Source of the DNA: Chlamydiia bacterium
GTDB taxonomy: Bacteria > Chlamydiota > Chlamydiia > Chlamydiales > JAAKFQ01
DNA length: 35,285 nt
Reading direction: 5' to 3'
NCBI GenBank assembly: GCA_041688145.1
Contig: JBDNIV010000028.1
Location: 1 to 35,285 of the forward strand
Shown here: one piece after another, positions 27,280-28,261 of the stretch
Position numbering within the stretch: the stretch's first letter is position 1
Layout: every line of letters begins with the position of its first letter
Position numbers and translations under genes: made by a program
Notes under the pieces: model-generated
The model's input: the letters and a program-made list of their open reading frames with translations, nothing else
What the model was told of the DNA's origin: nothing
Database searches by the model: none

Positions 27280-28074
27280 TTATACGTAGGAATATCTCAT
27301 CTCCTCATTTTTTGTAGGGCCAATTACCCTCCAGCTCAATTTTAAGCCAGAGCGATCAAAATGAACTTGCCCCATATAGGAATCACCACCACAAAGATGG
27401 GAATTGACTGAGGAAAGTGAGTGCTGTGTTGAAGGCGCTAAATGAAACAGAAAAACTGGATTGCTTGGCCCGCGACGCAAGTGTTCTAGCGTGATTGTTC
27501 CAGAAACTTTGTCTAAGGTCCATCGAAAAACGTTTGCAAAATTAATGTCTTGGCTACACTTCCCTTTCCAAAACCCCTTTTCACTAAATAAAAGAAGATT
27601 AGACCCTTCTTTTGTAACAGTCACTTCCCCTGTACCATGTCCATTCCATCCTAAATCTTCTTTTGATTGAGATTGAGCTGAAAATGTCAGTTTTTTTACC
27701 GTTGATAGTCTATCCCAAAACTCTAAAAGCGTACTCATTTTCCTCCTTGCGCTACTTTGACTTTGCTTGCCATAATCACACGTTGTATAAAATAGCCTTT
27801 TTTCATCCGGTGGCAAAAGTGTATATGCCTTTTTAAGAAGATCTAAAAGCTCTGGCATCAAAGCAAATCCTTGGTTGAAGTGATAGACGCGGGTCTTACC
27901 TTCATAATGACTGGAAATAAGCTCCCCTTCCTCCAAACGAATAAGTACTTTTTGTAAGGGAGTTAAGGGAAGACTGAAAATTCTTTGCAATTGAGCTCCA
28001 TAACATTTCCCATTTACAAAAAGAAAGATCAGAATCTTTTCAACGCTCTTGTTGCCAAATATCACTTCAAACAT
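27280..28074 (-). CDS. Winged-helix DNA-binding domain fused to a DUF6314-like beta-barrel domain; candidate regulator
   Basis: N-terminal IFGNKSVEKILIFL...YGAQLQ...LTPLQKVLIRLEEGELI...GKTRVYHFN (wHTH). C-terminal HLCGGDSY...WRVIGPTK (DUF6314-like). Divergent from bioB. Confidence 0.75.
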   Translation of the reverse strand: MFEVIFGNKSVEKILIFLFVNGKCYGAQLQRIFSLPLTPLQKVLIRLEEGELISSHYEGKTRVYHFNQGFALMPELLDLLKKAYTLLPPDEKRLFYTTCDYGKQSQSSARRKMSTLLEFWDRLSTVKKLTFSAQSQSKEDLGWNGHGTGEVTVTKEGSNLLLFSEKGFWKGKCSQDINFANVFRWTLDKVSGTITLEHLRRGPSNPVFLFHLAPSTQHSLSSVNSHLCGGDSYMGQVHFDRSGLKLSWRVIGPTKNEEMRYSYV

Positions 28075-28152
28075 AAAAAATTACACCCTTTTTTTAGGTT
28101 TAAAACCTCTTGCTTATACTTTTTTGGTTTTCAATGAAAACACAAAAAAATC

Positions 28153-28169
28153 AAACTCATTTTGAGTTT
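28153..28169. promoter_or_regulatory. Perfect palindrome in the regulator/bioB divergent intergenic region (candidate operator)
   Basis: AAACTCA-TTT-TGAGTTT. A second palindrome AGGTTT-A-AAACCT lies at 28096-28108. Confidence 0.4.
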
Positions 28170-28208
28170 ACATAAACCTATTTATAGTTTTTACAATTTA
28201 TAATCAAG

Positions 28209-28237
28209 TTGACACATCGAATAAAGCAGACAATACT
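28209..28237 (+). promoter_or_regulatory. Candidate bio operon promoter
   Basis: TTGACA-N17-AATACT, 24 nt upstream of the bioB ATG. Confidence 0.45.
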
Positions 28238-28261
28238 TACCTCTAAAAAAAGGCTAAAGCG

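Follow-up and report, generated by a model that had tools for sequence, protein, structure and literature searches.

The window, the whole stretch of 35,285 nucleotides from a Chlamydiia bacterium that was analysed, is contig C45 of a 1.28-Mb genome that is 92% complete. It carries a putative regulator gene, single-copy in the genome, with dnaJ on one side and, on the other, a bioB-bioF-bioD-bioA-bioE-like operon that runs divergently from it. The original prediction had run this gene to position 28261; its open reading frame occupies 27280-28074, and the remainder is the 187-bp intergenic region between the regulator and bioB. The divergent arrangement with bioBFDA was as described, with bioB, bioF, bioD and bioA all confirmed by Pfam/NCBIfam matches. 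The features of the locus are as follows, with their basis in brackets.

27205-27258, plus strand: dnaJ 3' end, which resembles the tail of bioE at 32811-32864 (sequence comparison)
27280-28074, minus strand: regulator gene, 264 aa, winged helix-turn-helix (wHTH), linker helix and DUF6314 barrel (open reading frame list, Pfam, structure model)
27283-27738, minus strand: helix and ten-stranded calycin/nitrobindin-like beta-barrel, aa 113-264, DUF6314 (Pfam, model, fold search)
27790-28074, minus strand: wHTH domain at aa 1-95 with an ArsR/HlyU/MarR-like fold; its sister is the wHTH in a toxin-antitoxin (TA)-like cassette (model, fold search, tree)
28083-28101, no strand: predicted operator copy of 11.1 bits, adjoining the start codon of the regulator gene (motif scan)
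28152-28170, no strand: predicted operator copy, upstream member of a tandem pair, 14.0 bits (motif scan)
28173-28191, no strand: predicted operator nearest the promoter, 15.4 bits; 17 bp separate its end from the downstream -35, and its center is at about -62 relative to the inferred start site (motif scan)
28209-28237, plus strand: predicted bioB promoter, TTGACA, 17 bp, AATACT (consensus match only)
28262-29221, plus strand: bioB, biotin synthase (Pfam Radical_SAM, BATS)
29211-30284, plus strand: bioF, KAPA synthase (Pfam Aminotran_1_2 and operon context)
30281-30907, plus strand: bioD, dethiobiotin synthetase (Pfam AAA_26)
30874-32121, plus strand: bioA, interrupted, in pieces of 66 aa and 346 aa (Pfam/NCBIfam, in-frame TAG at 31072-31074)
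32118-32879, plus strand: bioE-like ferritin-fold protein, last ~20 aa resembling the DnaJ C-terminus (ferritin-like match, relatives near bioB)

The in-frame TAG in bioA is followed two codons later by an ATG, and contigs from two other sequencing runs (X2 and X3, with different study codes but the same year and habitat, possibly one campaign) span the stop without differences. The gene is either a pseudogene or encodes a split enzyme, and because it is interrupted, the operon copy in this genome may be decaying. Relatives of the fifth gene, 44-54% identical, occur in five other genomes some 4 kb 3' of bioB, and this gene context, together with an excerpt of PMC12915131, is consistent with its identification as BioE.

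The tail of BioE matches the DnaJ C-terminus at 10 of 18 residues (E 7.5e-4). This likeness could be an old, decayed target duplication from an insertion, in which case it would bound the island in which the gene had been predicted to lie. That claim stands in part: the shared tail and the flanking genes of regulator homologues, which are scattered among loci, agree with it, but GC content is only slightly lower, and no empty site was found, the sole genome of the same family having other genes after dnaJ within 1.5 kb. At least half of the window's sequence words are contained in four lake or freshwater DNA runs, and no RNA run carrying window sequence was among the matches listed.

Other parts of the window encode functions of a different kind. 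Two OTU-like cysteine protease genes in tandem (Pfam OTU; 14572-15459 and 15522-16361, minus strand) may encode deubiquitinase effectors, two Vut_1 transporter genes followed by tgt form a queuosine-precursor salvage cluster (17298-19836, plus strand), and a protein at 34351-34986 (minus strand) contains two Pfam P_C10 (protein C10) stretches. The protein C10 family is unusual in bacteria.

The sole Pfam match of the regulator is DUF6314 (PF19834) at aa 143-263 (E 1.1e-9, 39.2 bits vs. a gathering score of 23.1). No Pfam family matched the wHTH, which is clearly seen in an AlphaFold2 model built from 97 sequences (pLDDT 90.9, pTM 0.82). In this model a variable linker and then a helix connect a winged HTH (aa 1-95) to a barrel with about ten strands, as in the fusion of wHTH and DUF6314-like beta-barrel that had been proposed from the sequence. 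Mean identity across homologues is 14% in the linker, compared to 63% and 51% in the two domains. By fold the wHTH belongs with ArsR/SmtB proteins (matches to HlyU, BigR, SqrR and SmtB at Z about 10-11), while the family HMM NF033788 was missed at 13.7 bits against a cut-off of 55, and a sequence search of the PDB gave only weak matches, to wHTH proteins.

The fold check suggested for the C-terminal domain returned a ten-stranded calycin-like barrel with nitrobindin-type matches. The best match was a designed ten-strand barrel (Z 13.8), followed among natural proteins, at about 10% identity, by nitrobindin/THAP4 (Z 10.8-11.3), CpeS (11.4), OlmO (11.2-11.6) and Ycf58 (11.1), and also Rv2717c; an Atlas search aligned the barrel to a THAP4-like protein at a TM of 0.68. 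Nitrobindin/THAP4, the CpeS/CpcT lyases and OlmO/OssO thus have the same barrel as the regulator (Z 10-11.6, rmsd 3-5 Å over 125-146 residues), but none of the listed calycin-like structures is fused to a wHTH as here, and their ligands are not transferable. Avidin and streptavidin, which are eight-stranded barrels, were absent among the fold matches listed for the whole protein, whose barrel has about ten strands. Residues E165, W169, N181, R184, W185, E197, H198, H226, C228, D231, Y233, W248, K255 and Y263 are 95-100% conserved, and judging from the fold these polar and aromatic side chains would line a pocket. The barrel has the kind of fold that forms ligand pockets, and its polar core is invariant.

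This architecture had been described as unlike that of BirA, BioR, BioQ or BioL, and domain searches agree. In the excerpts cited, BirA, BioR and BioQ (PMC11089781) and BioL (PMC12704756) are repressors with other domains. Class II BirA shares a wHTH with the regulator and acts on the bio operon and in certain bacteria also on bioY (PMC11089781, excerpt), but the regulator has no BPL_LplA_LipB ligase domain, a different palindrome and a site upstream of the -35. Matches to PF03099 lie elsewhere in the genome, whose biotin ligase is a separate protein without an HTH region that BirA models match from about profile position 83 only. The 187-bp region contains no full match to the BirA box in the pattern used earlier, as had been noted, and none to a second variant of the box; one half-site is present at 28166. 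BioR (GntR) and BioQ (TetR) are stand-alone, autoregulated proteins that cover both bioB and bioY (PMC11089781, excerpt), from which the regulator differs in its sensor fold: the GntR HTH (PF00392) has no match at E<=0.01 in the regulator nor in the 92% complete genome, and the TetR_N HTH with its all-helical ligand domain is likewise absent from the regulator, with no TetR domain in that genome. BioL (MocR/GntR) of Elizabethkingia is also a separate one-component regulator beside a BioE-type pathway, with palindromes upstream of bio genes (PMC12704756, excerpt). However, BioL represses and senses KAPA through an aminotransferase-like domain of the MocR type, which neither Pfam nor the model places in the regulator, whereas the regulator carries a beta-barrel and serves genomes lacking bioB as well. 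The excerpt of PMC3459881 credits Chlamydia with class I BirA only, without BioQ or BioR, and hence with either no regulation or a novel mechanism, and according to the excerpt of PMC12915131 Chlamydia retain bioE without its repressor BioL. No description of DUF6314 or of such a regulator was found in the searched literature, which lay outside subscription journals and supplements.

A single-sequence scan of genome contigs returned two loci only, and Chlamydiota genomes were then searched more broadly. Among 1497 candidate proteins 1103 matched the regulator, and the best-named homologues belong to Chlamydiales, Parachlamydiaceae, Rhabdochlamydiaceae and Criblamydia. Matches occurred in 246 of 401 Chlamydiota genomes, a count that includes stand-alone domains. 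The DUF6314 barrel profile matched 196 of 400 Chlamydiota genomes but none of the 29 in the small-genome family f4, which we infer to be Chlamydiaceae, so that environmental chlamydiae appear to own a separate regulator. Viral contigs contained no relatives. A search for longer DUF6314 fusions yielded only five proteins of 283-303 aa, which have DUF6314 alone and are weak evidence. In two relatives of 214-222 aa (P0161 and P0162) the profile match is broken into two, possibly with some of the central portion absent.

Linkage to biotin genes was assessed in 100 of the best 150 loci, with longer contigs favored. A divergent bio gene starts within 1.2 kb of the regulator in 84 of these 100 Chlamydiota loci (47 bioB, some of them truncated, 33 bioY, two BPL_N, one bioD and one bioE) and is missing from 16. 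From 80 metagenome loci, removal of the window's own sequence (one), redundant loci (eight) and loci that were too short (18) left 53 informative ones, of which 41 are linked to a bio gene and 12 have no bio neighbor. Homologues lying mostly away from bio genes would have spoken against the original prediction; in both samples the majority are linked. The genomes in these counts are kin, but in a quick tree of the regulator the bioB and bioY labels need at least five and six changes along branches with strong support, which argues that the linkage is not a single inherited accident. Of the 30 bioY-linked genomes, all but G115, where both arrangements occur, were examined. Among these 29, 28 show no match to bioB, the one gene sought, and one has a bioB fragment, at a completeness of 81-100%. 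The regulator thus adjoins synthesis genes where a genome has them and an uptake cassette in genomes apparently without them.

Several arrangements recur around these loci. In seven cases (L004, L007, L014, L033, L035, L040 and L091) the regulator stands beside truncated or reduced bio operons, which suggests that synthesis genes decayed repeatedly while the regulator stayed. A stand-alone BPL_N protein is encoded 3' of bioY in 22 of 100 loci (L016, L020, L025 and others), BioY and BPL_N are fused in L104:333-1340, and a 527-aa form occurs in L100; BPL_N possibly acts in biotin salvage or as a partner of the regulator. A hypothetical protein of ~95 aa and/or a CHY zinc-finger protein follows bioY in L012:4511-5115, L071, L073, L074, L078, L093 and L103.

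A palindromic motif search of 45 bioB-linked intergenic regions identified the 19-bp motif TAAACTA-N5-TAGTTTA. Sites of at least 12 bits are present in 42 of the 45 training bioB loci, in 27 of 30 held-out bioY loci and in 15 of 20 loci classed as "other", compared to less than 1% of shuffles and 4 of 268 other upstream regions; the motif also occurs in 40 of 41 linked metagenome loci. Both palindromes reported earlier in the intergenic region exist (28096-28108, with 6-bp arms and a 1-bp gap, and 28153-28169, with 7-bp arms and a 3-bp gap). Considered simply as palindromes they do not exceed chance expectation, since one with 7-bp arms arises in 21.5% of mononucleotide-shuffled versions of this 187-bp region. 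Only the second coincides with a conserved site, being the 14.0-bit motif copy. The first was rejected as an operator: it joins the right half of the weak site at 28083-28101 to the next half-site and is no motif copy. The strongest site (28173-28191) had gone unreported. The weak copy beside the regulator's start codon may serve autoregulation.

All six bioB genes remote from the regulator gene (74-570 kb away or on other contigs) keep a site of 15.1-21.5 bits; in four of these genomes the fusion protein is the only match. A seventh bioB has its own adjacent copy and is not included in the six. In genomes without DUF6314 the motif is found upstream of none of 24 bioB genes, 12 of which come from one family. 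The conserved palindrome therefore depends, as shown computationally, on the presence of the regulator protein, and this co-occurrence would place the protein in the functional class of biotin-responsive transcription factors. The motif was absent from bioY genes not adjoining the regulator, both in regulator-bearing genomes (0 of 28 and 0 of 17) and in regulator-less genomes (0 of 30), and the bioY of this genome has no site. Since remote bioY genes are without sites, the regulon is narrow. Nine sites of at least 12 bits occur in this genome, two of them at this locus. The top one elsewhere, C27:20539, lies inside a coding frame and was discarded as a further regulon member.

Weaker matches to the regulator are of another kind, a stand-alone wHTH protein of 111 aa encoded with a nucleotidyltransferase-like gene of ~180 aa (weak DUF2204). 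This TA-like cassette is common in Chlamydiota (L109:395-1281, L111, L112, L117, L119, L121, L123-L126, L129 and L130), and the two proteins are fused once (L128:1501-2337). The recognition helix and wing are nearly identical between the sister wHTH and the fusion regulator, and the two groups are split by one branch (SH-aLRT 95) in an unrooted tree. The same palindrome occurs in tandem just 5' of the start codon in 15 of the 19 sister wHTH genes examined, with the first copy containing the -10 box. This provides an independent tie between palindrome and wHTH. By analogy, the cassette would have the arrangement of an autorepressed TA operon, with a repressor geometry unlike that of the bio promoters. 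AbiEi autoregulates through tandem inverted repeats over the -10 (PMC7319586, excerpt), and AbiE/MenAT-type operons have a nucleotidyltransferase partner and such repeats in common with the sister cassette. Unlike AbiEi-type antitoxins, the sister protein (~111 aa) has no Pfam/NCBIfam match. The nucleotidyltransferase partner accompanies the sister wHTH only, with none beside fusion genes and none in this genome. These comparisons suggest that the regulator may have been co-opted from a toxin-antitoxin-like module.

Such an origin is compatible with the regulator being an antitoxin-derived, autoregulated hitch-hiker on the same mobile cassette as the bio genes, with palindromes that serve autoregulation only. 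The wHTH and palindrome shared with the nucleotidyltransferase cassette, a weak PADLOC PDC-M05A match of the sister wHTH (E 3e-5), the sites in 15 of the 20 "other" loci and the insertion signs at dnaJ would all fit. This explanation is nevertheless improbable, as the site is kept upstream of remote bioB genes in six of six cases, its spacing is fixed relative to the bio promoter, and the partner gene alternates between the non-homologous bioB and bioY. That the protein controls biotin synthesis or uptake genes in environmental Chlamydiota, as the original prediction had proposed of the gene in this genome, is instead highly probable from its linkage, its two unrelated targets and an operator that tracks the protein in trans.

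The target-proximal motif site was found in 79 of 87 promoter regions. The distance from the end of the site to the best predicted -35 is 16-19 bp in 37 and 27-29 bp in 33 (70 of 79 loci) and 38 bp in one, so that the two main spacing classes differ by one helical turn. A model-free count found TTG in phase in 64 of 73 loci and out of phase in 11 of 73 (shuffle mean 8.4, maximum 19), with the in-phase offsets picked post hoc, after the spacing result; it was replicated in metagenome loci, at 33 of 36 in phase and 12 of 36 out of phase. Tandem partner sites, 21 bp away, lie on the upstream side in 27 of 73 loci and on the promoter side in 1 of 73, and the proximal site overlaps a called -35 or -10 in 0 of 79 loci. 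Relative to an inferred start site, the sites are centered near -62 and -73. The fixed, helically phased upstream position makes contact with RNA polymerase likely. With nearly as much confidence as in the regulon itself, the protein can be considered a regulator of bio genes that acts from an upstream site.

This geometry is most simply read as activation. CRP activates from -61.5 at class I promoters, while GalR at -60.5 works by contact as repressor of one promoter and activator of another and can also repress by looping (PMC4693257, excerpt). In both, a dimer site centered near -61.5 or -60.5 goes with polymerase contact, as would the predicted operator here; both proteins are unrelated to the regulator, whose sign is predicted from geometry. 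We consider an activator somewhat more probable than a repressor, an estimate held down because the bio promoters are near consensus (-35 with 5-6 of 6 matches in 38 of 64, -10 with 4-6 of 6 in 55 of 64), which fits a repressible promoter too. A repressor of the same regulon, using biotin or a proxy as corepressor and acting by contact inhibition of polymerase or by looping between operator pairs, is a plausible if less favored alternative. It would account for the many intergenic regions in which operators form two clusters at a distance from each other, it has a precedent in GalR and in BirA, BioR, BioQ (PMC11089781, excerpt) and BioL (PMC12704756, excerpt), all of them repressors, and the sister wHTH sits on its own -10 box. 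It sits less well with proximal sites that never overlap a called promoter element, with partner sites that avoid the promoter side, and with the six trans loci, where the phased site persists and no operator cluster of the regulator gene is needed nearby.

The nature of the signal is less certain, and we give biotin or a biotin derivative about an even chance of being the ligand. Biotin or a proxy is favored because bioY-linked genomes are without bioB, and pathway precursors are unlikely ligands. An alternative of only slightly lower probability is that the protein regulates bio genes while its barrel senses a fatty acid or acyl chain, heme, a metal or the redox state of the conserved cysteine, or is an enzyme or protein-binding module, for example for BPL_N. 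The nearest solved folds bind heme, bilins or fatty acids or catalyze cyclization, and BioE consumes long-chain acyl-ACP (PMC12915131, excerpt). Stand-alone DUF6314 proteins point the same way: the conserved barrel residues are largely common to them, the H-x-C-x-x-D-x-Y core is equally conserved in those without bio linkage, and none of 20 stand-alone loci has bio neighbors or an operator site upstream, so the barrel taken on its own shows no connection to biotin. On the other hand, no barrel position discriminates bioB-linked from bioY-linked copies, which have the same pocket residues, and a single signal would have to fit both synthesis and uptake, for which biotin status is the simplest candidate.

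Stand-alone DUF6314 genes were also encountered in an Aeromonas caviae record (L137:6001-6423), between EamA-like transporter open reading frames, and in a Francisella tularensis record (L138:6001-6438), where the gene is annotated as a shorter hypothetical protein; neither has bio genes nearby. A single-protein metagenome scan found none outside Chlamydiota, and plasmid searches gave two records.

The wHTH and calycin-like barrel, the bio linkage, the operator and its phased spacing are computational observations, and the explanation we prefer for them is a new family of one-component transcription factors that would control biotin acquisition genes. A dimer would bind the palindrome; the copy near its own start codon would limit the regulator's expression, while the copy centered near -62 or -73 would contact RNA polymerase, in the alpha-CTD manner, at the bio promoter. 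Activation would occur under biotin scarcity and end when the barrel is occupied by biotin or a close stand-in for it (biotinyl-AMP, biocytin or a fatty-acyl signal that reports carboxylase activity). In its fullest form this would be the first activator-type biotin regulator, a TA-derived wHTH joined to a biotin-binding, non-avidin DUF6314 barrel, whose ancestral operator self-represses and whose duplicate at -62/-73 activates when host biotin is short. That combination as a whole is speculative and, taken together, rather unlikely.

The regulator would represent a fifth family of biotin regulators, apparently undescribed and phylum-wide in Chlamydiota, with a predicted operator and promoter, and it offers a first functional handle on DUF6314. 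It might also be usable as a compact, genetically encoded sensor for biotin. For the biology of the phylum, environmental chlamydiae appear to have a biotin regulator of their own that is not found in the presumed Chlamydiaceae.
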